Shown: positions 11,856-63,885 of the stretch, piece after piece
How the letters are laid out: every line of letters starts with the position of its first letter
Numbering within the stretch: the stretch's first letter is position 1
IMG/VR virus record: IMGVR_UViG_3300037477_000009
Coordinates: 1 to 64,000 of that record
Direction: 5' to 3' (one strand)
Length of the DNA stretch: 64,000 nucleotides
Source of the DNA: a virus
Taxonomy: Duplodnaviria > Caudoviricetes
Program-made: the position numbers and the translations under genes
Notes under the pieces: generated by a model
Databases searched by the model: none
What the model saw: only the letters and a program-made list of their open reading frames with translations
What the model was told of the DNA's origin: nothing

Positions 11856-11908
11856 CGAAGGTAAAATGCATTTATAATAAGTCGATCAAAAAACGGGGGC
11901 GAAAGTTT
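11856..11908 (-). promoter_or_regulatory. Candidate late promoter upstream of scaffold/MCP
   Basis: TACCTTCG (-7 like) at 11856-11863, TTTG 23 nt upstream, and a 24-bp block 22/24 identical to 40714-40737. Confidence 0.55.
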
Positions 11909-28800: not shown

Positions 28801-30161
28801 TGTGCTGCTTGCAATCTATACTTCGCATTATACTTTGTATTGATCTCATTTTGTTTGTGCAAGAGTTGATTGTTCAGTGCATCGAGTTGAGCATTTGTAT
28901 TTTTATACAACGCTTCCGCTTGCTCTTTACTCGTTACAAGTTTTGCCGCTTGCTGGTAATCTGATTTTATTTTACTGGCCGTATCGGTTAATGTTTGATG
29001 AAATGCTGTGCCTTCCGCATTCGCTTGCTTGGCGAGTTCAGTAGATACAACATTGGCTTTTATTACCGCCTTCTGTCTTATTTCCTCACCTTCTTTAAAT
29101 CCTGCATTGTACTCCGCATCACGCTCTTCTTCCATCGTCTTTCCATAGGTCTTAGTGTATATCTCATCAAATTTTTTATTAACCTCTGGCTGAATAATTT
29201 TAAACGCAACTGTTGCCATTGCTTCATTATACAGAAGTGTCTTATATGTTCCTTCATCACTCAGTCCATATTTCTTGGCTTGCGCTTTTGCGTATTCACT
29301 TATCTTGAATTCATCAGGCACTCTATGAACTCCTTCTGCGATCCTTGTATACGCATTGAAATATTCTCCAATCGGCTCAAGGTCTTTTTTCACTGTTTCG
29401 TGAACAGCCTCTCTTGCATCATCTGCCTTCTTTACTTTCGCAGCATCCTTCGCTACTCGTTCAGCCTTACGTCTCTGCTGCTCCTGTATGTATGCGTTCC
29501 TGTCAACCTTGATTGAACTTCCAAAACCTGCGCCTCCATCCGGAGGTAAATTTGTCTCTCCTTTGGAAACAGAAATATATTTATCAGTTTGTTTCTGCGC
29601 CCATTTTATATTGCGATCATAATCGATCACACCCTGTTCACCGCTAGTTATATTTCCATCTACATCACGCTCCGGTGTGAGTCCTTCCATCTGCGCTTTC
29701 TCATACTGCGCTGGCTTAAGATCAATTTCTTCTTTTGGTTGCACTACTGGTTTGGTAGGCATACTCACCATCTTACCTGATGGAGATGGTTGCTGCTTAC
29801 CCGAAAGAATAGTAGTCATATAATCATGCTCAAACGGATCAGTTGTTGTTGCCAACTGTGGTTGCGCAACTTGTGCAGGTGCTTTTGTTTTTTGCGCTGG
29901 CACTACTGCTGGTGTTGCTATTGGTGGCTGTGTCTCGGCAGGTGGTTTTGGTGTGACATTGTTATTCATCCAATCCTTCCCCATCTTTCTTTCAACAGCA
30001 CGATCAAGAGTATATCCCTGATCGCTCACCAGTGCATTCACAACTTTCAATCGCTTCAATGCTTCGCCATCGCCTTTGAGTTGTGTATACTTTTTTAGCA
30101 GCACACCATCATCTGCGCCTTTATTCATCTCTGCCAACAATTTTTCTAACCAGTCATTCAT
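16893..30161 (-). CDS. Large polyvalent virion/ejected protein (4422 aa) with two zincin peptidases, ART-like, GNAT and ExQSDW modules
   Basis: HEGAH at 25467-25481, HEFRH at 23481-23495, YHET...GLQP at 22941-22997, RGTGVG/FYKRFGF at 22330-22475, EEVQSDW at 21501-21521. Located after two ejection-type genes. Confidence 0.85.
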   Translation of the reverse strand: MNDWLEKLLAEMNKGADDGVLLKKYTQLKGDGEALKRLKVVNALVSDQGYTLDRAVERKMGKDWMNNNVTPKPPAETQPPIATPAVVPAQKTKAPAQVAQPQLATTTDPFEHDYMTTILSGKQQPSPSGKMVSMPTKPVVQPKEEIDLKPAQYEKAQMEGLTPERDVDGNITSGEQGVIDYDRNIKWAQKQTDKYISVSKGETNLPPDGGAGFGSSIKVDRNAYIQEQQRRKAERVAKDAAKVKKADDAREAVHETVKKDLEPIGEYFNAYTRIAEGVHRVPDEFKISEYAKAQAKKYGLSDEGTYKTLLYNEAMATVAFKIIQPEVNKKFDEIYTKTYGKTMEEERDAEYNAGFKEGEEIRQKAVIKANVVSTELAKQANAEGTAFHQTLTDTASKIKSDYQQAAKLVTSKEQAEALYKNTNAQLDALNNQLLHKQNEINTKYNAKYRLQAAQIEKVGRAELAEAQKKYKFQPSPELQAKIQKVYGQALKDVDTGGKDFRDALDSVAYNPSLNLFRQTAKSMAGVVRSWSSNLNFDTGVVAADYFANSIQTGRTELNSWRDYLDLNKLAKATGNIAGFMLPSMAATAAVTFATGGMGAPAALTAVAGGLTAWMVETGDMAVRMRDDIFAESGGDALKANRAGKRTFDSQVNLMWAYMLEGAPFLKAEQIANISARAARLTTGSLGKRLFWGGIEELVGEFPQEFHQDVFEQAIRNDQPYQEGYKLMTWDRAEHTLMNIAPMFLMGSGGHLMTHMREEAETEKQVKTFMLKNDFKNVAPGQRDQFVFDIMQRRGKSFAEAYVAHLFGGGVINQEEAESMAATLKHSEQLITNGKKYGLTPGQQKVYASMAFQKQDALRQAAAQTDPGLKQAAEEKAKEIGDNMVKFVKEGKGDYVVLTYPSGEQYVLSVSESEAALQNPKFLDEYKKGNFQLHTFGKRGKSQEILEQTDKELKEARAARKAAREKGSEVITRLPMPIPNKDEKEQGVTPEMLAAKRDKELQDAFDFDSYYEDLNSDSKWKVKQAQEFLANPKKFFENNVKFAKETLLHDPGNEMAKQALANSEAKLEKWNEINSKYPAPKTQAAPAQQATAPGAKTKVGQVWYDPTHKVSDTTQGVVDRVNNAEYINEHELKAAENELYDALEKNPNAAHLIEPLIEKIQNYEFTTTTKTGKVTEKVPTGRTNKTKIKVEPALQQATGSRVTVTLPNGTKATGVLKVEDGHYFVIDGKGNKVAAVGEKAINDRDLKLPDGDESPVTLDENGNVKSVTVQTRDGKLITIENPELALDLAIKMHVDAMGEIADGAFNEVYDEVEREVEMEVPNPIVEKPAPATETEKEKESEKETEKEKAPETEKETEKETEKKPEPQKEKDKETEKESESGKVKEISPAQIRSEILQKPTLKEALAEAETYADTDPSGKMTIEEAEKEIREKWQKPETETEKESAPMAGDEWLKPPGTNKTQPSVTFSGKDIAKLRKAAEKHGGVFGGFLDGVASIIKAWSKRMPNLTVTAHYSQASYTDGVVNQADGTKEESLSQGFYISKDGTNQIHINLTKATSETIFHEGAHPLLTALTKDSPEIIKGMYEDVVKMLDDVPGIEEAIRHGLKYEDQGEAKVHEETVVQFLALVGNREINLDKLSKSTVNKIKDLINRIIGMTGLKFRLPTNIEFSENDGIYEIAQKFSDAIHNGRQIAFAPALLGSNGKPRGKFSIDNVHDPAHGLTYELAKDSEEFAQLKKDGFVTEDKTLSNFASKTAVLTMPDHAFTGRLLKNGEVLMEGSGGIFYVIKFHPEGNFWAATTESAAAQFANLLNAQMKLSKKRGESENGTVRMALVSATTHKVLNSSAGSTGMLRILTSKAFDEKMHLSEKQVVTSISRALNQLRDDRKAAGKRLAEAGDKKYDGRTSDEGLVKAIKEPKNLPVIPASTPLEEMHTIMESWYDLNVSTFPERTEVNDYIFDQIAEAVTDEEAALQMVAFFEEVGDTKLKSGGLSATKLREGFAAVLNEPLLRNTESQQVYAVLELDSPVEHIKIPGQHDSYEWVIRGTDKNAKVRLHILQDRLNWKAHTVDLETNEIVKRKDFMKVFPTISNSKVIRFADHIDSDAKYEGQEEDDAKKEAKMTKKEKEAKAKFSLSSKPATLKQLGVKEGDTATDFIDKLIAHDGEYTDMLKMIKADPNFNIIRLDAYADLEKVPGGEYGGLYHPLGGKKGGLLQVQDIGDSYYNGMHEFRHFLTIDSAAAEKAKGTTAYNALQDMYEYIAAKKGKPGFLHRSDLNQGLDNFSEFMAELNINPKFREYASDVFADNLDDIRKTSKAIRDSKATSFVDLMRDLFNAMFGWLSKQKESGVEYDKSKPIIENAAKLAAELFSSTQQAKPKFSKGDQAAMEKAGDYLYHETQKEHIGSITETGLQPTSLGQSLVDDEGMISSMVIGRDGEYVDVTELSEDELNELGIPIEDVSGRTYVMSEEPKSSKYGDVLLRFPSSEVSGTEADVDDFIRETINPAKIEIKTSEGWKPLVESKGKYSKGESPSEFSKSLEAEHGIIVDLIGSLDKGDLTLSRIEVPKSDRGTGVGTAAMQDITEYADENNKRIVATPSTDFGGTSVARLTEFYKRFGFVENKGKNKDFSTKESMYREPVSQAKFSKGEAAPGKSIMADVVNGFYSPLEQTLLESKVDKQPVKHWMEKLGNKEEAKWTGLTAWLSAQQGSVTRDEIRKFLKENPITIKEKELSDLEMPSVQNEREALAAFDAGFTLIDDDGDAINSRLQIETGAINYPASINDTDTNTHYSQYQLPGEKEDYKEILVTLPVKPSLTNEEGTRMQDLLNIPTTRRTVAEDKELKALMEKEEEGDKLQYRPPHFRGEPNLVLHLRMSTRTDANGKKILFLEEVQSDWAQSGRKEGFLKPKVKKTAEEKAAINEKIEELWKAERKAEGVVNKMMREIRETGKVTNIASELKAGNKELQVAHDKMYQTRDRRLAFVNQLREDEKPTSQIVPAPYVTETSHWVKLALKIALKEAVKQGVDKLAWTTGTQQFNRWGSEEIHWNTRMKPKGYKIKVKEGVEAPRSARGTRHRDLGWYDREVTESDIKRIAAEWKIKPEDIEVSPAPGEWTVAINEQTDADAFEGNEDALRTNRLEEEGIRITTRDELFEAVDRNLSRSHNTDELNKLTDRIWKRMQTEDEGTSLPRKEGMEGFYGVPAEGKPGMLGGAASKLVGQETGTTEIQLGGKLNVYETAPDGYGRNWVIAKMNGQVQGRFKSKAEAMDAMRTVYNNNSRQHSINITADVIAQVQSGQAKFSKGGGVRDAVLQQKLNDIRAKVKGQLQGTGASNAKKVDAVKEEIHKEITAMLKDAEDRKVFTGVVKANLLKTVVSKLNDVRSPYSMLKYTDYLEKVLDDVEYDKHLQGANAYKKKIRSTIKNRKDRNSATTNQVIQDFLRISPSNVEDIYQYNDLAARILGVAEGVKVSRSGVKNPFLNISLAEITNYTNEQLKIADKAAAARLADMYADLVTAGKINPTLMSAAEMQKVIDSLEKGTDAEIKQAQEDLEDDWFNKMNALRSVAEYAQMGVQEYSNSNPDLTKEEQEIMNRYLRMDLEKLSATELAKVIDAMNNIAVNENFVGSGELSIISSVNDAIKETQKHWKDNKVSFGDLSGRFLRNVKHFASTQLIHEFITRSSKAAAFFQRMSGVFDINSGHAKSKVLTINTVKEYEKLKKGMKNADSAMNRYRRGVYADVMNNFGGTEEEVLAEFERRKGWIEESAKRLRESEPQFKKDILEGIVLQRVVDTLFKDAKTPADVTANMKRIEPHNIKLVEFWQNAFMKRKHLVQENTELYNNRIWENVENYTATSLKGYNGEKGVEENRDRDDFAAAYMSKGVRSQPAGTKIAKVRLQNLPKGNVLNLDFDNVQSKLFYETNYDVETSKAIVHFKKFIANPEVADLFGGRYNRNVVLDGVKKMVQLQRGRMPMVDEQGSSIAKTLNAAQAKATRMSLGSVLQWIWQYVSVGAGTQFNMGTDVGLFYKALLMSNKLELFDQFGIGLRGGTEAGYKRKVDTGEIDRSVLAGNAMSVYKAAIRLGEKMHDATMKSLVKADVSIARTSWLAYYMQSLKKQGVNLDTVNWQTEHLNANQEAAAYAEQMVSRSQNVNDSSNLGSILRDSGNGWKKIMTNIMLPFSSFNVNMRVRMTNDMQKILHWEHPKEAALSLAATVAEQLTFNGIKIFVTGWLSTLAANAVAKMLGYKDEDDDDDEVTITIAGKEVKTTKKMKKWMSSTFSDFFFGGMGTLTQTGFQEGMNAIYGLIATEQYASGTIKEFPNLYFSPKLSDKDVWDDAGLYAILPNKIVDVLSNGRMITTGKIDEVTKGGLHPETERVELTDEEKHMHQLIFWIDTLGWFGVGDSYINQFNNKLKIIAHEKDLKKHGGDEFTITTKAER

Positions 30162-53160: not shown

Positions 53161-53589
53161 ATGTACATACCAGTGCAAGACTTCAGATATCTTAAACGAT
53201 TTTGTTACTTCGATACTACACTGGAGAAGTATAATCGCAAAGCCATGATGCGTCTCAATCGCACTCAGGTATTACTGCTGTATACACTCTATGATCTCAC
53301 TCGTAAGAAACCAACAGCAACAGCACCTTTCATTGGTAAATACTTTCTTGTATCAAAGAGCAAACGCAGTGCAAGATTTCATACAGTCAAACAATTGCAC
53401 ATACTGGAAGTAGCAGAACTTGTGTTGCATATCACTGATAAAAATGGATTCTATCATTGGTCATTAACACTGCTTGGTCACAATACACTCAAAGCAATTG
53501 AACGCATGATTCGCAAACAAGAAAATGTTTCAAAGATCAGTTCTCGATCCTCTGTCTTAACTCAATTATTCTCCTCTCAAAACAAGTGA
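53161..53589 (+). CDS. Winged-helix DNA-binding protein (putative regulator)
   Basis: LNRTQVLLLYTL...LHILEVAELV...WSLTLLG pattern; palindrome at 53129-53145 just upstream. Confidence 0.55.
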   Translation: MYIPVQDFRYLKRFCYFDTTLEKYNRKAMMRLNRTQVLLLYTLYDLTRKKPTATAPFIGKYFLVSKSKRSARFHTVKQLHILEVAELVLHITDKNGFYHWSLTLLGHNTLKAIERMIRKQENVSKISSRSSVLTQLFSSQNK

Positions 53590-53941
53590 TAATACCTGGC
53601 TTTGTGTGTATTTGATTGTGACATTGCCAACACAGTATTGCGATGTTATCTGGATCATATCTTAGCAATGGAAATTTTGATTTCTCCAATAGATGATGGA
53701 AGTTGAATAACTGTGGCTCATGGATAATATTCTCACATCCTACTGCCTGACATTTGTTGCTCGTTCTATTGAGCCAGACATCCATGTAAAAATCAATATC
53801 ATCTTGCTTCCTCTCACGAAACATATGTTGCTTCACTCTTACAGATGCTGATGTTGCACATCGTTTGCATCTCCCATGAGAGAAGATCAGTCTCATCTTG
53901 TGACATTCAATGCACTCTTTTGGTTTCTGTCTGATAGCCAT
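53537..53941 (-). CDS. HNH endonuclease with N-terminal Zn finger
   Basis: CIEC...CKRC; FHHLLEKS...YDPDNIAILCWQCHNQIH. Confidence 0.8.
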   Translation of the reverse strand: MAIRQKPKECIECHKMRLIFSHGRCKRCATSASVRVKQHMFRERKQDDIDFYMDVWLNRTSNKCQAVGCENIIHEPQLFNFHHLLEKSKFPLLRYDPDNIAILCWQCHNQIHTKPGIITCFERRIIELRQRIEN

Positions 53942-54160
53942 TTTACCAATGAGAATTGATTGTTATAGCAAGATATAATTTATATCCATTCATTGATCAA
54001 AACGTGAGGTCGATAGTTTTTTCCATAGAATTATGTGGATAACTTTTTGGATCTTTTTTTTGCTACGTTAAAGAATTGGATATCAAATATATCTGAGGCA
54101 TACAGTCCACAGTAAAAACTTACACTGGCGGTTGATGCTATGTGGTATACAGTCCACAGC

Positions 54161-54168
54161 TATCTTTG
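54161..54168 (+). promoter_or_regulatory. Bacteroidota sigma-A -7 box for the rightward operon
   Basis: TATCTTTG; no clear -33 box, but 13-bp direct repeats lie upstream. Confidence 0.55.
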
Positions 54169-54532
54169 TGGGAGTTCTTTGATAGGCCAGTTGGAAGCCA
54201 GATACCACGACAAAACGGTCAAACTCGCTCTGAGACTACGTTTCAGACGATCCTCACTCCGAAAATTGTCAGGTAGATCACACTTGATCACTGGTTGTAC
54301 AACGGAAACAGCGCAAGACAGACTTGAAGAATACTCTAACGGAGATTCGCACAGACAGCAGCCACCACGTTTCATTTCTCATAGGAGAAAGTAAGCAAAC
54401 GGATTCTGCAAAGACTAAATGTTCACGATGTAATATCGTTCACTGTGTACGAAAATTTTTCACTGACACTGCGCCCTTCATTCACCAGCTTTCGATTTAT
54501 CACTGCTGTGTGTGGTCTTGAGGCCAGATGAT

Positions 54533-54586
54533 TGTATCGTACAATGGTAATCGCCATTGCTGATGAGACTATACAAGTCGAAACGG
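54533..54586 (+). ncRNA. Type III hammerhead ribozyme
   Basis: GUA site at 54539-54541; stem I CAAUGG/CCAUUG; CUGAUGA at 54560-54566; stem II GACU/AGUC; GAAAC at 54580-54584; stem III CGU/ACG. Confidence 0.85.
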
Positions 54587-54608
54587 AAAAAAAATAAACT
54601 ATACAGAT

Positions 54609-55601
54609 ATGTCAATGGAATTAATCAACATCGCAATTGCAAATGATGCAGATTTTTGGGTGAGTATGTCAGGTGGAAAAGATAGTGAAGCAACAGCACT
54701 CACACTGAGAGCAAATAACATCAGGATCGCTGGTGGAGTTCATGCTGATCTCGGTAGACTGGAGCATAAAGAATCAGGTGATCAATGTCAGCAGTTAGCT
54801 GCTGAGTTAGGCATTCCACTGGTAGTAGTGAGAAGAACAGATGGTGCAGATATGTTAACTCACTGGAGAAACAGAATGCTGAAGTTGAAATCACAGGGTA
54901 AGATCAACGTAGGTGGTAAGACTACCCCATTCTGGAGTTCATCTGGCGCACGTTATTGCACCAGTGATATGAAGCGTGAGCCGATCAACAAACACTTCCG
55001 TAGTGTAAAAAATAATCTCATCGTTTCGTGTGAGGGTATCAGAGCGGATGAAGGGGATGCGAGAAAATTCAAATCACCAATAGCAGTTAGATGGGCAATC
55101 ACATCTGAGTATTACATGAAGTTCGCTGGAGTTGCAGTAAGAGTGAAGCAGATAAAAAAATTGAATGATTCAGCAAAAGCAATGAAGTCATCCAATCCAC
55201 TCAAAGCAAAAAAATATAGCCAGATCGCAGTGTTGGAAAGAGAAGTGCTGGAGATTGTTCTACCAGTATACAATCCAAAAAAGCGTTTGGCTATTACATG
55301 GTTTCCAATTTTCAATTTCACTACTGATGAAGTGTGGGCAACAAGAGGACACACCAGTGCAGATTTGCAAGCAGCAAGAATTGAATTCAAGCAGACTGGT
55401 AAAGCAAATGACTGGAGATTTCATCCAGCATATGCGAAGGGAAACAACAGGGTATCATGTGTGTTCTGTGTGATGGGTTGCAGTAATGATCTCGCAGTAG
55501 GCGCAAAACATTATCCTGAGTTACTCAAGGAAATGATTGCACTGGAGAAAGAAGGTAACGCAACATTCAAGGATGGTGAATCACTGGAGAGATATTTATA
55601 A
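54609..55601 (+). CDS. PAPS-reductase-family (PP-loop) protein
   Basis: SMSGGKDS, CTSDMKREPI, EGIRADE, RVSCVFC. Confidence 0.85.
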   Translation: MSMELINIAIANDADFWVSMSGGKDSEATALTLRANNIRIAGGVHADLGRLEHKESGDQCQQLAAELGIPLVVVRRTDGADMLTHWRNRMLKLKSQGKINVGGKTTPFWSSSGARYCTSDMKREPINKHFRSVKNNLIVSCEGIRADEGDARKFKSPIAVRWAITSEYYMKFAGVAVRVKQIKKLNDSAKAMKSSNPLKAKKYSQIAVLEREVLEIVLPVYNPKKRLAITWFPIFNFTTDEVWATRGHTSADLQAARIEFKQTGKANDWRFHPAYAKGNNRVSCVFCVMGCSNDLAVGAKHYPELLKEMIALEKEGNATFKDGESLERYL

Positions 55602-55608
55602 GTTCAAT

Positions 55609-55652
55609 GGGTAGCAGTGTATGCTGTGAGATTCAAATCTAACTACCCACTA
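55609..55652 (+). ncRNA. tRNA-like element E1
   Basis: GGGTAG-[CAGT gtat GCTG]-TG-[AGA ttcaaa TCT]-AA-CTACCC-ACTA. Confidence 0.75.
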
Positions 55653-55680
55653 ATATTTAATCAACAAAAAAAACAGACAA

Positions 55681-56160
55681 ATGAACACAAAAATTGAATG
55701 CCCAAAATGTGGCCGCACAAATTGTACAACAATTGATAACGAGCCATTGAGCCATGACAAAGAGTGGTTAACCAAAAATGGTATGCAGTTCGATAACCAG
55801 TTGTATGTATTCTTCCGGTGCAATGACTGCGACAATAGGTTTCGTGGTACACTGGAGATAATCACACAGAGTGAACACAAGGCACTCACTGGTCTACAGA
55901 GCAAGTTTCCAAATGGCTTTGCTTCATGGATAGAAACGCATCACGAAGTTGTGGCCATTATAACCAACGAACTTAGAAAAAATGAAAGAGAAGGATCGGT
56001 TATCTGGAAGAGACAAATCGAACAAGGCACTGGTGGTATGTTTGAGTTAGCAGAAGAGTGGACAGATGAATTTGAAAAGAAGAACATAGATAGAGAATGG
56101 GATGGTGAATTCTTTGAAGAGGTTGAAGATTTCTGTATCGCAAAAGACAAAGCAAATTAA
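55681..56160 (+). CDS. Hypothetical protein with N-terminal Zn ribbon
   Basis: CPKC...CNDC. Confidence 0.7.
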   Translation: MNTKIECPKCGRTNCTTIDNEPLSHDKEWLTKNGMQFDNQLYVFFRCNDCDNRFRGTLEIITQSEHKALTGLQSKFPNGFASWIETHHEVVAIITNELRKNEREGSVIWKRQIEQGTGGMFELAEEWTDEFEKKNIDREWDGEFFEEVEDFCIAKDKAN

Positions 56161-56167
56161 TCACACT

Positions 56168-56213
56168 GGCTGCATCGCTATAGGCACACCATCGAATGGT
56201 AATGCAGCCACTA
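56168..56213 (+). ncRNA. tRNA-like element E2
   Basis: GGCTGCAT...[ACCA tcgaa TGGT]-A-ATGCAGCC-ACTA. Confidence 0.7.
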
Positions 56214-56243
56214 ACAAATTTCAAAAACAAAAAAGCAAACACA

Positions 56244-56483
56244 ATGAAAAGTTTAATCGCAATCGCAGCAGTAATCATGTTATCATCATTCACCAATGGT
56301 GATCATTGCAAGGGTAAAAAGAAAGATGGCACACCATGTCAATCTACAATCGTAAGCAAAGCCACTGGCTATTGCAATGCACACAATCCAAACGCAAAGA
56401 AGTGTGTGTTCATCAAGAAAGATGGAGAGCGTTGTAAGATGACTGTAAAGGCCACAGAGACACTTTGCAGATTCCACAAGTAA
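56244..56483 (+). CDS. Signal-peptide protein with two C-C-C-H Zn-finger-like repeats
   Basis: MKSLIAIAAVIMLSSFT; CKGKKKDGTPC...C..H and CVFIKKDGERC...C..H. Confidence 0.7.
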   Translation: MKSLIAIAAVIMLSSFTNGDHCKGKKKDGTPCQSTIVSKATGYCNAHNPNAKKCVFIKKDGERCKMTVKATETLCRFHK

Positions 56484-56490
56484 ATGGTAA

Positions 56491-56555
56491 GGGTAGCAGA
56501 ATAGGATCGCCAGTGCGATCTTATTGCTGTGAGATTCGATTCTAACTACCCACTA
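56491..56555 (+). ncRNA. tRNA-like element E3 (long P2)
   Basis: GGGTAG-[CAG AATAGGATCGC cagt GCGATCTTATT g CTG]-TG-[AGA ttcgat TCT]-AA-CTACCC-ACTA. Confidence 0.8.
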
Positions 56556-56585
56556 ACAATTATTCAATCTTAAAATTTAATCGAC

Positions 56586-57323
56586 ATGACAACAGATCAG
56601 TTATTGCAAGCAGCATTTTATGCACTCAATGAAATTCCAAACAAAGAGATCAGTGGTGAATTCAAAAACAGTTATGCACTGGCAGCAGCACTTGGTAATC
56701 ATCTTAGGAAAGAAGATGATGCATCGTATCTCCTGACGTTCACATTGCGTACCACATACAAGGATGGAGTGAAGGACAATGATTACACTGAAATATTCTG
56801 TGATGAATCAGAAGGTCGCACACCAAAGCAACAGGCACATGAAAGGATGGAAATGTTACGCAGCCAGTATGATTCCATGTATAGCAAGACAGAGATGTAC
56901 ACTTGGAACATCGCTAAGATCACAAGCACCAGCGAACATTACAACTTAGGTAATGAGCCAGCACCAGTGCAACCAGCAGATGATCTCGTTACACTGGAGA
57001 GAGGCGCAGAGATAAAGCAAGAGCAACCATCACTTACGTTTGAAGTAAGATCATCACATGGCACACTCACTGCTGCTAAATCAAATGGTGCAGTTGTGAA
57101 TTGTGTGCTGAATGATAACGAAGATGAAGATGGACACTCACTACTTGATATCACCAAGTTCGATGTGAAAGAGTTTCGCACCTATCATAACATCGGCATC
57201 GATGCAATGCCTGATAGTATCGACATACTCGATCTTGGTTACTGGTATGATAACGGAATTGGATTATACGAATCACCGGATGGTGACTGGAGAGAGATGA
57301 TGATCAACATCGCAGATGACTAA
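56586..57323 (+). CDS. Hypothetical protein (245 aa)
   Basis: ORF between E3 and E4. Confidence 0.7.
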   Translation: MTTDQLLQAAFYALNEIPNKEISGEFKNSYALAAALGNHLRKEDDASYLLTFTLRTTYKDGVKDNDYTEIFCDESEGRTPKQQAHERMEMLRSQYDSMYSKTEMYTWNIAKITSTSEHYNLGNEPAPVQPADDLVTLERGAEIKQEQPSLTFEVRSSHGTLTAAKSNGAVVNCVLNDNEDEDGHSLLDITKFDVKEFRTYHNIGIDAMPDSIDILDLGYWYDNGIGLYESPDGDWREMMINIADD

Positions 57324-57332
57324 ATGATCTCA

Positions 57333-57379
57333 GGGTAGCAGAACGAAAGTTGCTGTGGATCGAATCCAACTACCCACTA
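57333..57379 (+). ncRNA. tRNA-like element E4
   Basis: GGGTAG-[CAG AAC gaaa GTT g CTG]-[TGGA tcgaa TCCA]-A-CTACCC-ACTA. Confidence 0.8.
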
Positions 57380-57408
57380 AATATTTAATCAACAAAAACA
57401 AACGACAA

Positions 57409-57948
57409 ATGACAGTTAATCCAAGTCTCACTCCAGAGACTTTAAAAGCAACAGATGAAATGATAGATGCAGCCAATGCGCTGATCTTAGCAACAGCCTA
57501 TGCCAGTGTAGTAACTCCAGTGGTAGAAAAAATCCACCAAGATGTGCTAAACGAAAATCGTTATGCATGGGATATGAAAATTGTATTCTGTGGCCGTAGA
57601 TCGGAGAGTGACAAAGTAAACTTCCTGAAAGAGAATGGTGAGTATTGCAGCAAGCCATCACTTGTCCAACTTACAGGCAGCAAGAACTTCAATGACTACT
57701 TCGTTCAGGTAGCAAAAAAACTTGCACTGGCTGGCTTTGAAGTGAATGATGATGTATGCCCAATGCTGGAAGCAATAGATTTAGAATGGAAGGCGAAGAA
57801 GGTGCTTATCGATACCATGCAACCAACTACTGGTTTCAAGTACGATGACTTCTTCAAGACAACGAAGTGGAAAGAACATATCGAGAGGTATGTTGATCTA
57901 CTCTTGAGGTGGCTTGCACCACATCTCAGGAACACACTGGTAAAATAA
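57409..57948 (+). CDS. Hypothetical protein
   Basis: Start reassigned to the ATG at 57409. Confidence 0.7.
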   Translation: MTVNPSLTPETLKATDEMIDAANALILATAYASVVTPVVEKIHQDVLNENRYAWDMKIVFCGRRSESDKVNFLKENGEYCSKPSLVQLTGSKNFNDYFVQVAKKLALAGFEVNDDVCPMLEAIDLEWKAKKVLIDTMQPTTGFKYDDFFKTTKWKEHIERYVDLLLRWLAPHLRNTLVK

Positions 57949-57975
57949 TTTAATCAATCTTAAAATTTAATCGAC

Positions 57976-58278
57976 ATGAACAAAGTAGCATTTAAAGAAA
58001 CAGACATTTTTTGGCAACCGGAAATCACCGAAGATGGTGATGGGGTAATCGGCCATGAAGATGAAGAGTATTTATTTTCATTTGAAGTATGGAGTACGTT
58101 AAGAAATCTTTTAAAGGATTATCCTAACTGTGAACCAGTGGAACACGAAAGAAGTGAGTTTGATATAGAGTATCCAAATTTTGTAGATGAGGTCGCATTC
58201 AATTCGCCTCCAGACAGATCAACAGAAGATGAGTTGATCATCTTGGAGTTGTTATGGAAGTGCGAGATGGAATCATAA
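57976..58278 (+). CDS. Acidic hypothetical protein
   Basis: Shares the TTAAAATTTAATCGAC-ATG leader with 56586 and 58365. Confidence 0.65.
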   Translation: MNKVAFKETDIFWQPEITEDGDGVIGHEDEEYLFSFEVWSTLRNLLKDYPNCEPVEHERSEFDIEYPNFVDEVAFNSPPDRSTEDELIILELLWKCEMES

Positions 58279-58285
58279 GATCACT

Positions 58286-58334
58286 GGACTGGCTGGTTAA
58301 TTCGCAGTAGCATTTCAATTGCACCAGTCCACTA
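58286..58334 (+). ncRNA. tRNA-like element E5
   Basis: GGACTGG-[CTG gttaattcg CAG]-TA-[GCA tttcaat TGC]-A-CCAGTCC-ACTA. Confidence 0.8.
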
Positions 58335-58364
58335 AACAATTCAATCATTTAAAATTTAATCGAC

Positions 58365-58733
58365 ATGACAACAAAGCAGACAATCGACATCACCCCAAGA
58401 TGGGCAGAGTTATTACCAGCAATGCTTCAATTGCACAGGCAGTACAATAAGAAGCGTAAGCCTACACTGGAAGATGCAAAGTGGTATGAAACATTGCTTG
58501 CAGAATTCAAGACGATGGCATTCGCTGCTGACAAGTGGAATGCACATGAGAAACTCAACACTGGTGAGGTAAAGACAGATCATTACAACACACTGGTGAA
58601 GATCACTGGTGGTAGTTATGATAGCATCGGCAGATACTTCTATGCGCACATCGACCAATTGAATCGTGCATGGATCAACATACCAGCAGGAGTGTATGAT
58701 GCAAACAAATTTGAGATCGTAGCAGGTCAATAA
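58365..58733 (+). CDS. Hypothetical protein
   Basis: ORF between E5 and E6. Confidence 0.7.
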   Translation: MTTKQTIDITPRWAELLPAMLQLHRQYNKKRKPTLEDAKWYETLLAEFKTMAFAADKWNAHEKLNTGEVKTDHYNTLVKITGGSYDSIGRYFYAHIDQLNRAWINIPAGVYDANKFEIVAGQ

Positions 58734-58742
58734 GATCACACT

Positions 58743-58791
58743 GGACTGTTCAGGTTAACTCGCTGTGGCACTCGATGCAAGCAGTCCACGA
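58743..58791 (+). ncRNA. tRNA-like element E6
   Basis: GGACTGTT-[CAG gttaactcg CTG]-TG-[GCA ctcga TGC]-A-AGCAGTCC-ACGA. Confidence 0.8.
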
Positions 58792-58820
58792 AATATTTAA
58801 TCACAAAAATTAAATGACAA

Positions 58821-59549
58821 ATGCCGACACAAAAAGAAATGGAAACTTATCCAGACACTTGCGATAAGTTAATCGTATCGCTTTACGATTCATCAGAAGC
58901 ATGGCCACAGCCATATGCTGATGCAGGGTATCCTGTAATGTTTTGGGATATGAATCACGAAGGTGATATCATTCACCACTGGTCAACATTCATGGACAAC
59001 ATTGAAGAAGCAATCGAAGAAGGTTATTATCCGTATGGCCTACTGGCAGCACCACCATGCGATCATTTCGCTTCCAGTGGTGCAAGGTGGTGGAAAGAGA
59101 AAGATGCCAGTACAGAGCGTGTAGGCCACAAGGACATTGCCGAAAACAATGTTGACTTGGGAGTGCTGCTTGCTGAGATACCGATGCTGATATTGGATCA
59201 GGTAGAACAACACTTCGGTTATGAATTCAAGTGGTGGGCATTAGAGAATCCTGTTGGCCGTATTGAGAAAATGTGTCCAGACTTAAAGCCATACAGAAAG
59301 ATGATGTTCGATCCATGTGACTATGGCGATCCATATACCAAGAAAACTATTCTATGGGGAACATTCAATCCCGATCTTCCCAAGACACCAGTAGAGCCAG
59401 AGTACGTTACCTATGTGAAGAAGGATGGATCGCTCACAAGGTTTGCACCACAGTTTGGTCGCACTGGTGGTAAGTCTGCAAAGACAAAAGCGATCAGGAG
59501 TAAAACACCAAGCGGATTTGCCAAAGCGTTTTTCCAAGCAAATCAATAG
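58821..59549 (+). CDS. C5-cytosine DNA methyltransferase-like protein (short form)
   Basis: AAPPCDHF (motif IV), ALENPVG (motif VI), YTKKT (motif VIII-like); motif I degenerate (SLYDSS). Confidence 0.75.
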   Translation: MPTQKEMETYPDTCDKLIVSLYDSSEAWPQPYADAGYPVMFWDMNHEGDIIHHWSTFMDNIEEAIEEGYYPYGLLAAPPCDHFASSGARWWKEKDASTERVGHKDIAENNVDLGVLLAEIPMLILDQVEQHFGYEFKWWALENPVGRIEKMCPDLKPYRKMMFDPCDYGDPYTKKTILWGTFNPDLPKTPVEPEYVTYVKKDGSLTRFAPQFGRTGGKSAKTKAIRSKTPSGFAKAFFQANQ

Positions 59550-59566
59550 GCCAGGTAGATGATGAT

Positions 59567-59609
59567 GGACTGCGATCAGGTCGTGGAGTTCAAACTCGAC
59601 AGTCCACTA
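59567..59609 (+). ncRNA. tRNA-like element E7
   Basis: GGACTG-[CGAT cag GTCG]-TG-[GAG ttcaaa CTC]-GA-CAGTCC-ACTA. Confidence 0.8.
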
Positions 59610-59636
59610 AATATTTAATCAACAAACGACAAGACA

Positions 59637-60506
59637 ATGGACTTAACTATTTTTTCATTTGGCGCAGGGCAAGAATCAACTTACCTGTTGCATAAGCTGG
59701 TCAGCGATCCAGCGTTCAGAGCCAAGCACATCAAAGGCCACTTGCTGGTTGTAGGATCAGACACTGGCGATGAGCATCCGCATACTTATCAGAATGTGGA
59801 GAAGCTAAAGTTGTTCTGCAAGTACAACGATGTTGAATTCTATTGGGTAACTCCTGACATGGGATATCACACGAACACATGGCAGAGTCTCACTGGTCAG
59901 TACAAACGCAACAGTTCAATTGGCTCTGCTGCATTCAAACAGACTTGCACTGATAACCTGAAGGTGAAAGTGGTTGACAACTTTGTTGAAGGCTGGTTGA
60001 AGAAACAACTTGGCAAGCCTGATGCAAAGCGTAAGACGATCTTCAAAGGGATCACTGACATCAGGCTCATACTTGGATTTGCGAAAGGTGAGGAATCAAG
60101 GACAACCAGTGGCAACAAATTTGATGCAGTGTGGAAGAAGAAGTCAATGGTGCGTTACTTCCCACTCATTGAAGATGGGATCACTCGTCAGGATTGTATT
60201 GACTACAATACGATCAACATCCCATACACTGTGTGGCCATCCAATTGTATGCGCTGTTTCTATCAGGCAGATCAGGAAGTGTTGTGGTTGCACAGAAACT
60301 TTCCTGAGAAGTTCCTTGAGTGGTACACGATGGAGCAAGCGAAGCTGACCAAGTACGCTGGTGCTGATAAGAACTATGGAGTGTATGGCAAGGTCTTACT
60401 GATGCAGAAGCTGGAGAAGGCCACTGATCTGTATGGTCACTGGAGTGATGAGCAACTTGATGAATACAAGTTCTCACATGGCCACTGTATAAAGTCAAAA
60501 TATTGA
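59637..60506 (+). CDS. Second PAPS-reductase-like (adenine-nucleotide alpha hydrolase) protein
   Basis: SFGAGQES variant PP-loop, SDTGDEHPHTY, CTDNLK, PSNCMRCFY. Confidence 0.75.
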   Translation: MDLTIFSFGAGQESTYLLHKLVSDPAFRAKHIKGHLLVVGSDTGDEHPHTYQNVEKLKLFCKYNDVEFYWVTPDMGYHTNTWQSLTGQYKRNSSIGSAAFKQTCTDNLKVKVVDNFVEGWLKKQLGKPDAKRKTIFKGITDIRLILGFAKGEESRTTSGNKFDAVWKKKSMVRYFPLIEDGITRQDCIDYNTINIPYTVWPSNCMRCFYQADQEVLWLHRNFPEKFLEWYTMEQAKLTKYAGADKNYGVYGKVLLMQKLEKATDLYGHWSDEQLDEYKFSHGHCIKSKY

Positions 60507-60529
60507 TCACTATAAAAACTAAAAGACAA

Positions 60530-60814
60530 ATGACAAAGCGAATTCCCATCCCAAGAGTTGATCTTAAAAGAAAGCTGGTCTGCGTATACTCTACGCAGCT
60601 TTCCATGTTTGAGGTTTGCCAGATGACAAACAAAGGCACAGTCTCAAAGATGTTCAAGCCACAGGTTGCATTCACTGATGACGTACACAAAGCCTTCAAG
60701 CGATTCACTGTGCCATTCGCACGTTTCAGAATCGTGGCTGGAGTGAAGCGTGATCAGTGTAAGACATGGAATGAATGGATCGAAAGAGTATGGCAAAAAG
60801 CAAATCAGAAATAG
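60530..60814 (+). CDS. Hypothetical protein
   Basis: Start reassigned to MTKRIP. Confidence 0.6.
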   Translation: MTKRIPIPRVDLKRKLVCVYSTQLSMFEVCQMTNKGTVSKMFKPQVAFTDDVHKAFKRFTVPFARFRIVAGVKRDQCKTWNEWIERVWQKANQK

Positions 60815-60840
60815 TATTTTTAAATTTTAAAACTATACAA

Positions 60841-61113
60841 ATGGCAGCGAAACATTATCAGCTTCTTTCACTTCCACAGATCACTTCAGCTAATATCGAT
60901 AAGAGGGTTGCAGACAAGCAAGAAGAAATCAGGTTGAAGTTACCGGACATCTTCACCCATTTACCATACGCTGAAGAAGTAGGCAAGGATTTGCTTTACT
61001 TAGTGGCATTAGAAAATGCAAGGACACTAATGAACACAATTGATTACAGAAATTATGAGAAGGCAGGTAAGCCAGTGGATTACGAAACCTGGCTACAACA
61101 GAATGCTGAATGA
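60841..61113 (+). CDS. Hypothetical protein
   Basis: AAACTATAC-AA-ATG start at 60841. Confidence 0.65.
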   Translation: MAAKHYQLLSLPQITSANIDKRVADKQEEIRLKLPDIFTHLPYAEEVGKDLLYLVALENARTLMNTIDYRNYEKAGKPVDYETWLQQNAE

Positions 61114-61122
61114 TCACAGGAG

Positions 61123-61169
61123 TGGCTGCGAATTAACTTGTCGTGGGTTTCGATACCGACAGCCGTCTA
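61123..61169 (+). ncRNA. tRNA-like element E8
   Basis: TGGCTG-[CGA attaacttg TCG]-TG-[GGT ttcgat ACC]-GA-CAGCCG-TCTA. Confidence 0.75.
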
Positions 61170-61200
61170 AATATTTAATCACAAAAAAACAAATGACAAA

Positions 61201-61425
61201 ATGGAAAAAGAAAAGAAAGTCTCAGTAGGGCAACAGTTGGTTATTAACCACACTGACAAAGCGATCCTTGCGTATGAAGCATGGAGAAGAGCCACACAGA
61301 TAGAGTGGTCGCATAAGTACCAGTGCTATAAAAGATTTTTCGGTAAAGCGTTTACCAAAAATCCAAAGACACCACAACAATTGTATAACATCTACAAAAA
61401 AGAAAGCAATGGCAAAATCAGTTAA
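61201..61425 (+). CDS. Hypothetical protein
   Basis: ORF after E8. Confidence 0.6.
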   Translation: MEKEKKVSVGQQLVINHTDKAILAYEAWRRATQIEWSHKYQCYKRFFGKAFTKNPKTPQQLYNIYKKESNGKIS

Positions 61426-61708
61426 AGGTCTTGAGGACTATGGAATAAAAAATCTTGAAGATTTTCTTGACAGGCTGGAGTTATTTATGTTTCATGGCGG
61501 CACTGATATCTTAAACGCTATGAGTAAAACGCACCTAACAGAATATATGTGCAGGAAGTATTTGAATGAAGCTGTTGAAAAAGGATTCTATAAAAAGTCA
61601 TGGCTGCGTGGTGATGCAAATAAAAAGAACACTCCAATGTCAATGCGGTATCTACACAAATATTATTACACTAAAATTAAAGACCATGCAACCGATCAGG
61701 GAACTTAA
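61409..61708 (+). CDS. Hypothetical protein (possible wHTH)
   Basis: Coupled ORF. Confidence 0.55.
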   Translation: MAKSVKGLEDYGIKNLEDFLDRLELFMFHGGTDILNAMSKTHLTEYMCRKYLNEAVEKGFYKKSWLRGDANKKNTPMSMRYLHKYYYTKIKDHATDQGT

Positions 61709-61952
61709 TGAAAGAGAAAACATCGTTCTTGAATACTGTCAGGAACACGCACAGGATATCATCTGGATATACAAGGTTGTTGAGTATGCAACCGAGCAAG
61801 GGATCGCATTAAAAGAAAGCAAGGCTGGTGCGATCCTGTTGCAGTTCTCCAGATGTGGATGGCTTAACAGGTTACCACGATCATCCAGAGGATGGGGATT
61901 AGGATGGGATGTGCAAGCGTACACTGTCAAGCCTATTGTAATTCCGAAATGA
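61686..61952 (+). CDS. Hypothetical protein (possible wHTH)
   Basis: Start reassigned to MQPIRE. Confidence 0.55.
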   Translation: MQPIRELNERENIVLEYCQEHAQDIIWIYKVVEYATEQGIALKESKAGAILLQFSRCGWLNRLPRSSRGWGLGWDVQAYTVKPIVIPK

Positions 61953-61958
61953 TTCACA

Positions 61959-62004
61959 GGACTGGTTGCTTCAGGCAAGGCATCGAATGCCAGCCAGTCC
62001 ACTA
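61959..62004 (+). ncRNA. tRNA-like element E9
   Basis: GGACTGGT-[TGC ttcag GCA]-A-[GGCA tcgaa TGCC]-A-GCCAGTCC-ACTA. Confidence 0.8.
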
Positions 62005-62032
62005 ATATTTAATCACAAAAACTAAAAGACAA

Positions 62033-62548
62033 ATGAACAAAGAAACAAGGGATCGAGTTGCTAAACTGCAAAGCGATCTCAATGTAGCGCACAGGAATCT
62101 TGGTAACCTTCAAGAAGAACTCTTCCTTATCATAGAGGTAGAACGGGAAGCGGAAGCTAGTGACCAAATTTTTGAGATACTACAAAGCGCATCAAAATTA
62201 GTTATGAACGCTGGCACTGACCTTGAGGTATCGGTCAGTGTTCTTGGTGGCATCGTTAATCACCAAGAGCAACCGAAAGTTCTCAAGACATCGTTCAACG
62301 ATCAAGAGAAGAAGGAATTGCATGGAGGCTTTCATGGTAATATTCGTTTTGATTTACTCAACGACCAAAACGAAAGAGTGCTATCATGTTACAGAGCAAC
62401 GATACCAGGTGGCCTTGATTTTATGAATGCGAAGATGGAAGAACACAAAAGCACATGGTTTACTGTTCATATAATGAAAAAGACTGGCGGTAAGTTCAGG
62501 TCTGTTGCTCATTTAGAAACAGAAGCAGGTACAATATTCCAACATTAA
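62033..62548 (+). CDS. Hypothetical protein, coiled-coil N-terminus
   Basis: ORF after E9. Confidence 0.65.
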   Translation: MNKETRDRVAKLQSDLNVAHRNLGNLQEELFLIIEVEREAEASDQIFEILQSASKLVMNAGTDLEVSVSVLGGIVNHQEQPKVLKTSFNDQEKKELHGGFHGNIRFDLLNDQNERVLSCYRATIPGGLDFMNAKMEEHKSTWFTVHIMKKTGGKFRSVAHLETEAGTIFQH

Positions 62549-62559
62549 AAAAACATACA

Positions 62560-62907
62560 ATGAAAAAAGAATTCAAGTATGAGGCCATCATGTATTTCAC
62601 TGGCAAGCGGAAGTCCTTCACTGATTATATCGACATCTTTGCAGCCAATGATTCAGTAGCACTCGCAACGGCTACTGAATACCTGTTAGAGACAGAAGGT
62701 GCAAGTGCTATTCACTTCCGTAAGGTCGGCAACAAGAAATGGAGAGCCGTTAACCAAAGTGAAGTGATGTCGCATGACTTCAGAGACATGAAGTATTACA
62801 TCGATTACGTTACCGAATGCATCGAAAACAGGAGAAAGCCAATGACGTTTGAGAAGTACAATGGATTACTCGATGGTGAGAATTGCATAATGGGTACTAT
62901 CATGTAA
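62560..62907 (+). CDS. Hypothetical protein
   Basis: A-rich start context. Confidence 0.6.
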   Translation: MKKEFKYEAIMYFTGKRKSFTDYIDIFAANDSVALATATEYLLETEGASAIHFRKVGNKKWRAVNQSEVMSHDFRDMKYYIDYVTECIENRRKPMTFEKYNGLLDGENCIMGTIM

Positions 62908-62915
62908 CCGGAAGT

Positions 62916-62953
62916 GAAGTGGTGCGCTGAGTTCGATTCTCAGCCACTTCCCA
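62916..62953 (+). ncRNA. tRNA minihelix E10
   Basis: GAAGTGG-tgcg-CTGAG-TTCGATT-CTCAG-CCACTTC-CCA. Confidence 0.7.
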
Positions 62954-62976
62954 AGAATTCTATATCTTAGTGACTA

Positions 62977-63885
62977 ATGAGATCGAAGTCACTTAACCTA
63001 CCAAAGCGAATTGCAATCGCAAGAAAATTCCTTAAAGGATCGTCAGTCAGAGAACTTGCAAAAGAATACAGCCTGGCTGAACAAACCATTGCTGGCTACT
63101 TGCGCAATCACATTGATAAAAACGGAAGAGTGATCTCTGCGCCACCAGCGATGTCGAAGGAATTGCAGCTACCAGGTGAAAAGTGGAAGGTAGTACCAGT
63201 GCCATCCAAGAACAAGATAGAAGCCAGTAATCTTGGCCGTATCAAGAGCCACGCATATGGTAGGGAGAGGATACTTGATGGCAATATAAAGTTCGGTTAC
63301 AGATCGATCTGCTACCGAGTAAAGAATAATAAACGAAGAGATGAACTAAGCCATATGCTTGTTGCAAAAGCCTGGCTTGAGCCAAGACCATCAACAAGGC
63401 ACGTTATCGTTCATCTGGATCACAACAGGTGGGATAACAGTCCAGCGAATCTGAAGTGGATGATCAAGCGTGATGCACAACGTCACGCACGACATTCGCC
63501 TTACATGGAGATACTACGCAAACGTGCAAGAGCGATGCCTACCGAACAGGCGAACAAAGCCAGGTATGGTAAGCTGTCTCGTAAGGAGGTCATCAGCATC
63601 AAGCAGAAGATACACAATGGCAGAAGGATAATTGATATCGCAAAGGAATACGGGATCGCAGAGATGACTGTATCACGCATTCATCGGGGTATCATATGGG
63701 CAGATGTTCTTCCGCAATTAACCAGGAAGAAAAAGGAGTTGAAAATAGTGCCAGTGGAAACAAGGATCAAGATCATCAATGCACTTCGTGCTGGTATGCA
63801 GGGAAAGGTAGCTGCTGCACTGTATGGCTTCGATCCTACCACCATCTCCCGTATTAAAAAATCGTTACAACATGGAAACGATTAA
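62977..63885 (+). CDS. NUMOD4-HNH homing-endonuclease-like protein with HTH repeats
   Basis: EKWKVVP...EASNLGRIKS (NUMOD4); HMLVAKAW...HLDHNRWDNSPANLKW (HNH); three helix-turn-helix-like segments. Confidence 0.85.
   Translation: MRSKSLNLPKRIAIARKFLKGSSVRELAKEYSLAEQTIAGYLRNHIDKNGRVISAPPAMSKELQLPGEKWKVVPVPSKNKIEASNLGRIKSHAYGRERILDGNIKFGYRSICYRVKNNKRRDELSHMLVAKAWLEPRPSTRHVIVHLDHNRWDNSPANLKWMIKRDAQRHARHSPYMEILRKRARAMPTEQANKARYGKLSRKEVISIKQKIHNGRRIIDIAKEYGIAEMTVSRIHRGIIWADVLPQLTRKKKELKIVPVETRIKIINALRAGMQGKVAAALYGFDPTTISRIKKSLQHGND

Follow-up and report, generated by a model that had tools for sequence, protein, structure and literature searches.

The DNA analysed here, referred to as the window, comprises bases 1–64000 of a soil-metagenome virus record 75,513 bp in length. 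Its genes include a portal (11908–14220), the large terminase (14222–16240) and tail proteins, and amid the virion genes lies an ORF of 4422 aa on the minus strand (16893–30161) with no Pfam match at E ≤ 0.001. Further along, a 667-nt gap separates a minus-strand HNH gene from the first gene of a plus-strand cluster. This first gene encodes a PAPS-reductase-like protein and is followed by co-directional genes for zinc-ribbon and primase-zinc-finger proteins. A hammerhead ribozyme motif lies inside the gap, on the same strand as the PAPS-reductase-like gene and immediately upstream of it (ATG at 54609). The features of the region are:

53537–53941, minus strand: HNH endonuclease gene, divergent, bounding the non-coding stretch (PF01844, E 2.2e-6)
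53942–54536, plus strand: non-coding stretch upstream of the ribozyme, with no credible ORF or Pfam match
54513–54526, plus strand: small hairpin TGGTC-TTGA-GGCCA, 10 nt 5′ of the ribozyme (−7.5 kcal/mol)
54533–54537, plus strand: 5′ tail TGTAT, proposed partner of loop II; pairing judged chance or non-functional from shuffles and class contexts
54537–54586, plus strand: type III hammerhead ribozyme, whole motif (R1 54.7 bits; RF00008 30.2 bits)
54537–54541, plus strand: 5′ strand of stem III, UCGU, and cleavage nucleotide A17 at 54541 (sequence; RF00008 and R1 alignments)
54542–54559, plus strand: stem I hairpin, 6 bp and a U.G, loop AAUC (as a 6-nt loop, UAAUCG)
54560–54566, plus strand: core strand C3-U4-G5-A6-U7-G8-A9, CUGAUGA (sequence; RF00008 alignment; core pattern)
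54567–54579, plus strand: stem II GACU/AGUC (G10.1-C11.1) with loop II AUACA at 54571–54575 (sequence)
54580–54586, plus strand: core G12-A13-A14, then 3′ strand of stem III, ACGG, with A15.1 at 54583 (sequence; RF00008 and R1 alignments)
54587–54608, plus strand: A-rich leader of 22 nt from the ribozyme to the start codon, no Shine-Dalgarno (class spacing 10–59 nt, median 20.5)
54609–55601, plus strand: PAPS-reductase-like protein, 330 aa, first gene of the plus-strand cluster (PF01507, E 4e-7; 1296 homologues)

The ribozyme had been predicted to end about 23 nt before the first ATG, and we measured 22 nt. Its placement at the head of an early operon is plausible from the sequence. A sigma-70-like promoter overlapping the ribozyme (TTGAGG-N16-TACAAT) was rejected, as such sites occur at chance level (7 against 4.2 expected), and the Bacteroidota-type promoter TTTG-N17-23-TAnnTTTG was not found upstream of the ribozyme. 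The upstream stretch also holds the palindrome GGATATCAAATATATC (54078–54096), which is among the GATATA-N3-TATATC sites found genome-wide.

Anatomy of the hammerhead

The invariant hammerhead core is complete: CUGAUGA, GAA (54580–54582), the A54583-U54540 pair, A54541 (H17, non-G) and the G54567-C54579 pair are all in place. The cleavage triplet is GUA and the cut is predicted between 54541 and 54542. The original prediction had called the core nucleotides, the triplet and the cleavage position; the sequence and the RF00008 and R1 alignments agree on all of them, and re-reading the sequence showed every one of its coordinates to be correct. Stems I and II are loop-closed and stem III is open, which is the type III topology. 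As stem I is closed in cis, the idea of a trans-acting hammerhead was rejected. Stem I is formed by 54542–54547 with 54554–54559 (6 bp), and U54548.G54553 closes the loop AAUC, giving CAAUGG(U)-AAUC-(G)CCAUUG. Stem II pairs GACU (54567–54570) with AGUC (54576–54579). For stem III we read the pairs U54537.G54586, C54538-G54585, G54539-C54584 and U54540-A54583 from the sequence. It thus has three Watson-Crick pairs and one G.U, in agreement with the 3–4 bp first reported, while the 20 members of the R1 model described below have 5 to 6 pairs. Since its stem III is shorter than in any of these, the window ribozyme may cleave more slowly or need help.

A tertiary contact between loops I and II is needed for hammerhead speed at physiological Mg2+. 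Watson-Crick pairing between the two loops of the window ribozyme amounts to ≤2 nt. Stem I is 2 bp longer than stem II, a difference that has been tied to loop contacts (Perreault et al., 2011, PMC3088659). The element GACU-AUACA-AGUC is identical in the window ribozyme and in three metagenomic hammerheads (L048, L092 and L098), whose loop I sequences are UAUUCG, UUUUCG and UUUUG; with UAAUCG in the window, all are U-rich. That the AUACA loop II recurs together with a similar loop I suggests, at the level of sequence, that the loops are conserved jointly for a tertiary contact. The 7-mer CTATACA occurs twice at the locus, at the stem II/loop II junction (54569–54575) and in the leader (54599–54605), 4 nt before the ATG.

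Statistical support and related phage hammerheads

The core pattern CTGATGAG-N3-30-CGAAAC has a single match where 0.01 would be expected, and a lax three-stem descriptor has one match in the genome, against 0.017 per dinucleotide shuffle (5 of 300 shuffles held a match). We trained a covariance model, R1, on 20 further type III hammerheads of phage and metagenome origin, the window genome contributing none. It scored the window ribozyme at 54.7 bits (E 1.8e-11), the sole match both in the window and in the 75.5-kb genome. Among the Rfam hammerhead models, which had been named as a check, Hammerhead_3 (RF00008, clan CL00010) aligned end to end (model positions 1–54) at 30.2 bits, with E 9.6e-5 on 301 nt and 5.7e-6 per genome; this is below its gathering score of 48.5, and the type I and type II models found nothing in the whole genome. 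At gathering thresholds, Rfam gave no match in the whole window or in 15 related loci. All other scanned phage type III hammerheads (L006–L017) likewise miss the RF00008 gathering score. As these are perfect and still below threshold, the shortfall reflects the model and not the window sequence. RF00008 has the same topology and core as the window ribozyme, whose loops and short stems depart from the consensus of the model; its gathering score is a curation cut-off, not a structural feature. At this score, the Rfam type III model misses the compact phage class described below. Judged from its sequence, the motif at 54537–54586 is a genuine type III hammerhead, beyond chance.

The phage class was retrieved with a pattern that held the core and stem II, left stem I unconstrained and fixed only the inner part of stem III. 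This pattern returned 12 phage contigs, and each of the 12 carried a complete type III hammerhead. The class list comprises L006–L017, L044, L048, L062, L063, L072, L086, L092, L098 and L112. Across 20 class members, 12 of the 16 base pairs vary on both sides; as this final set was picked with a pairing descriptor (stem III minimum 3), its pairing percentage is circular. All 20 members have the same stem I design of 6 bp, a conserved U and a 4-nt loop, together with a 4-bp stem II carrying a 4–5-nt loop and an open stem III. An ORF starts 10–59 nt (median 20.5) after the ribozyme in 30 of the 31 distinct class contexts, so the 22 nt of the window is a typical distance. The window ribozyme shares with this class the stem I design, the 4-bp stem II and the spacing of ∼20 nt to the ATG. 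It differs in its stem III (3 bp and a G.U, against 5–6 bp) and in its triplet (GUA, usually GUC in the class). In most class members a strong hairpin (median −14.1 kcal/mol) lies directly against the 5′ end of the ribozyme; the window hairpin at 54513–54526 is a weak counterpart of it. Several class contigs hold 2–3 hammerhead copies ∼0.3–1.5 kb apart, whereas the window has a single copy. The phages carrying class members have almost no genes in common with the window phage, and the ribozyme class has therefore spread across unrelated phages.

The modules of L006–L017 (viral contigs of ∼40–61 kb) consist of a strong 10–13-bp hairpin, the type III hammerhead, a ∼20-nt A/T-rich leader and an ATG, and up to three per locus stand ahead of small genes. 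Two further loci, L020 (820–890) and L093 (reverse strand), have type III hammerheads with a 9-nt loop I. In both, the hammerhead is preceded by the hairpin TAGTC-TTGA-GGCTA, which differs from TGGTC-TTGA-GGCCA of the window by one compensatory pair, and both share a conserved upstream non-coding stretch of ∼130 nt.

Hammerheads of the other topologies were also found close to start codons. For the 98 unique type I hammerheads in this metagenome scan, the median distance from the cleavage site to a following ATG is 24.5 nt. Arrays of type II hammerheads in L162, L163 and L205 (viral contigs, GC ∼55–65%) lie between stop codons and Shine-Dalgarno sequences, and one of these arrays directly precedes a 30%-identical homologue of the PAPS reductase. 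The type II copies start a few nucleotides from the stop codon (TAA-GGTCGAAAC...), end just ahead of AGGAG and an ATG, and recur at successive gene junctions; some seem to be without the standard downstream GAAAC core segment.

We found no orthologue of the window ribozyme: the phages collection gave no match, and a single-protein search of viral_contigs gave no close relative. The nearest PAPS-reductase loci (L003–L005, ∼50% identity) have terminators and promoters or tight junctions and no ribozyme, and a 97%-identical fragment (L002) begins inside the PAPS-reductase-like gene. A pattern for the ATACA loop had no match in viral_contigs; its one match in genome_contigs, from Pseudoalteromonas, has no clear stem I or stem III and was rejected. 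A second soil metagenome (run X2) contains a relative with ∼90% identity across the PAPS-reductase gene and a portion of the leader (window 53900–56200); small indels occur in the leader, and a segment of ∼240 nt is replaced at 55920–56158. Its contigs lack coverage of 54369–54608 and are hence uninformative on the ribozyme.

Proposed mechanism and its alternatives

Hammerhead cleavage yields a 2′,3′-cyclic phosphate and a 5′-OH end. We consider it probable that the hammerhead cuts its own plus-strand transcript and trims off the non-coding leader, so that the mRNA of the PAPS-reductase-like gene and its downstream neighbours starts with a 5′-OH and a ribozyme cap. The plus-strand transcript would fold the ribozyme during synthesis, forming stem I, stem II and the short stem III, and the backbone would be cut between A54541 and C54542. 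This would detach an upstream leader of up to ∼600 nt ending in the 2′,3′-cyclic phosphate, and the shortness of stem III would allow this 5′ product to leave. That the downstream product is a 5′-OH RNA starting with the stem I hairpin, as originally predicted, follows from the established chemistry. The 45-nt ribozyme body would remain on the mRNA, with the 5′-OH directly on stem I, and would be followed by the 22-nt A-rich leader and the ATG, so that the ribosome landing zone would stay unstructured. Such an mRNA would probably profit from having a defined 5′ end, independent of context and poorly recognised by 5′-monophosphate-dependent decay; by analogy, the 5′-OH may slow such decay and standardise the 5′ UTR. 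We infer that the site is transcribed, that cleavage takes place in vivo and that stability or translation benefits.

The original prediction also held that the 5′ tail TGTAT (54533–54537) forms a pseudoknot with loop II. The exact complementarity of the tail to AUACA is indeed present in the sequence, but the pseudoknot itself finds no support: such pairing is matched by shuffles, is absent as a class feature and would clash sterically with stem III. When the 30-nt 5′ flank is paired with stem-loop II by RNAduplex, 29% of shuffled flanks form a duplex as good as the best one of the real flank. In one of 31 class contexts, against 1.88 expected, the 5′ flank contains a sequence complementary to loop II. 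The AUACA loop II of the three other hammerheads comes with different 5′ flanks; the nearest look-alikes in L092 and L098, TGTCT and TGTGT, lie inside strong upstream hairpins. Since stems II and III of a hammerhead form a roughly coaxial stack, the 5′ tail exits at the far end of stem III, some ten stacked layers from loop II. With no linker present, U54537 would have to pair with A54571 even though its neighbour C54538 is paired in stem III. For the same reasons we think it very unlikely that the ribozyme is switchable, with UUGUAU (54532–54537) pairing either with loop II or with CUAUACA of the leader, so that cleavage and translation would be coupled or regulated. In the leader state, a helix of 54528–54540 with 54598–54610 would cover the AUG as well, and the minimum-free-energy fold of 54460–54612 does contain this helix (11/13) around the ribozyme. 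The single context with a loop II complement, L048, is moreover another AUACA-loop hammerhead with TGTAT in its 5′ flank. The duplexes are nevertheless ordinary, the one with the leader being equalled by 33% of shuffled flanks, and the fold z-scores are not significant.

Three other readings leave the tail aside. The main job of the ribozyme could be to form the 3′ end of a functional upstream non-coding RNA, with a leader of ∼350–450 nt being released and the trimming of the mRNA a by-product. In its favour, the ∼600 nt upstream have neither a credible ORF nor a Pfam match, and class members have a stable hairpin right against the cleavage site, where it might guard the 3′ end of the upstream product. 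We regard this as unlikely, however, as the fold of the upstream stretch equals that of shuffles (z −0.53, no extra stability), the stretch has no Rfam match and shares nothing with other ribozyme loci except the ribozyme, and the upstream partner of class ribozymes is usually a coding gene and not a non-coding RNA. Alternatively, the motif could be an inactive relic or a chance look-alike, either untranscribed or with a stem III too short to cleave. Chance is expected to produce only 0.01–0.02 such motifs even with lax patterns, and the intact core, the perfect stems I and II, the loop pair common to other hammerheads, and an orientation and gene spacing that fit the class all make this most improbable, in spite of the 3-bp-and-G.U stem III, the single copy in the genome, the score under the Rfam gathering threshold and the failure to find an orthologue showing purifying selection in the phages collection and viral_contigs. 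Hardly credible, finally, is a mobile cassette that is not an operon device and travels, for example, with the neighbouring HNH homing endonuclease. An HNH gene does lie ∼600 nt upstream on the opposite strand, the same ribozyme class is found in unrelated phages, and the PAPS-reductase genes of the nearest relatives have no ribozyme; yet there are no repeats or shared flanks beyond the ribozyme itself, and an unsystematic look at class loci showed no HNH gene beside their members.

tRNA-like elements and known systems

Returning to the reading of the hammerhead as a trimming device, its position at the first junction was said to be equivalent to that of tRNA-like elements at later ones, and both do lie just before an ATG. 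The tRNA-like elements stand between consecutive plus-strand genes over 55609–62990 (plus strand), for example at 55609–55653, 56491–56560 and 58286–58330. Each of them combines a closing stem rich in GG with a variable hairpin and an arm resembling a T-loop (GTTCAAATC, GATTCGATTC, GGATCGAATCC, GAGTTCAAACTC and others). Downstream of every element comes a conserved box like AAATATTTAATCA (close to CTAAATATTTAATCA) with an A-rich leader, 25–35 nt before the ATG. ARAGORN found no tRNA in the window, and an Rfam E-value scan of 55580–63000 gave no tRNA-family match for these elements. The 75.5-kb genome has a single hammerhead and no multiple ribozymes flanking genes or short gene blocks. Tentatively, and with more doubt than confidence, we suggest that the hammerhead and the ∼10 tRNA-like elements could be interchangeable parts of one transcript-punctuation system. 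The long plus-strand transcript would then be cut ahead of each gene: at the first junction the hammerhead would cleave itself, and at the later ones the host tRNA-processing enzymes RNase P or RNase Z would do the cutting. Such a system, if real, would parallel in a bacterial virus the tRNA punctuation of mitochondria, with two solutions side by side in one genome. The co-occurrence of the hammerhead with the tRNA-like elements supports a reading of the latter as processing signals too.

Hammerheads ahead of phage genes are already known, and the window copy adds a further member. In prophages they flank single genes, and a role in processing long phage transcripts has been proposed (Perreault et al., 2011, PMC3088659). 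In the haloviruses HF1 and HF2, a hammerhead (HHphage) lies 13 nt before the first early ORF, and a transcript 5′ end maps within 3 nt of the cut (PMC3088659). Like the window ribozyme, HHphage is a self-cleaving hammerhead shortly before a start codon, in its case at the head of an early polycistronic transcript. HHphage belongs to archaeal viruses, has a variant core and lies 13 nt from the ATG, whereas the window ribozyme has a canonical core and type III topology, is the sole hammerhead of its genome and is followed by genes that carry tRNA-like elements.

The window hammerhead may, by analogy, be a natural counterpart of the engineered insulator RiboJ, which in Escherichia coli approximately doubles transcript abundance and increases protein levels two- to tenfold (Clifton et al., 2018, PMC6206723). 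RiboJ, consisting of the sTRSV hammerhead and a hairpin, likewise stands between a promoter or leader and a coding sequence; it removes upstream RNA, leaves a structured 5′ end and gives higher expression. It is engineered, however, and has an added 23-nt hairpin after the ribozyme where the window has an unstructured A-rich leader and a function that we infer. In RNA viruses, self-cleaving ribozymes in the 5′ UTR enable translation initiation (Lopez-Galiano et al., 2026, PMC13725137). These resemble what is proposed for the window ribozyme in that a hammerhead in a viral 5′ UTR links its self-cleavage with translation of the ORF that follows, but they are type I ribozymes of eukaryotic RNA viruses and serve cap-independent translation, whereas the window comes from a DNA phage of a bacterium.

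Taken together, the type I, II and III hammerheads of environmental phages all cluster ∼20–25 nt upstream of start codons. Because the type I hammerheads leave an unstructured 5′-OH leader of ∼25 nt, the common denominator across topologies would be a cut just outside the ribosome landing zone, and not the hairpin cap. The function of bacterial and phage hammerheads was still called unproven in a 2019 review (PMC6765202). The window copy is of particular interest because it is the only ribozyme in its cluster, the other junctions of which are punctuated by tRNA-like elements. It also offers a clean case, a single and fully canonical ribozyme placed where a long non-coding leader meets the first gene of the cluster.
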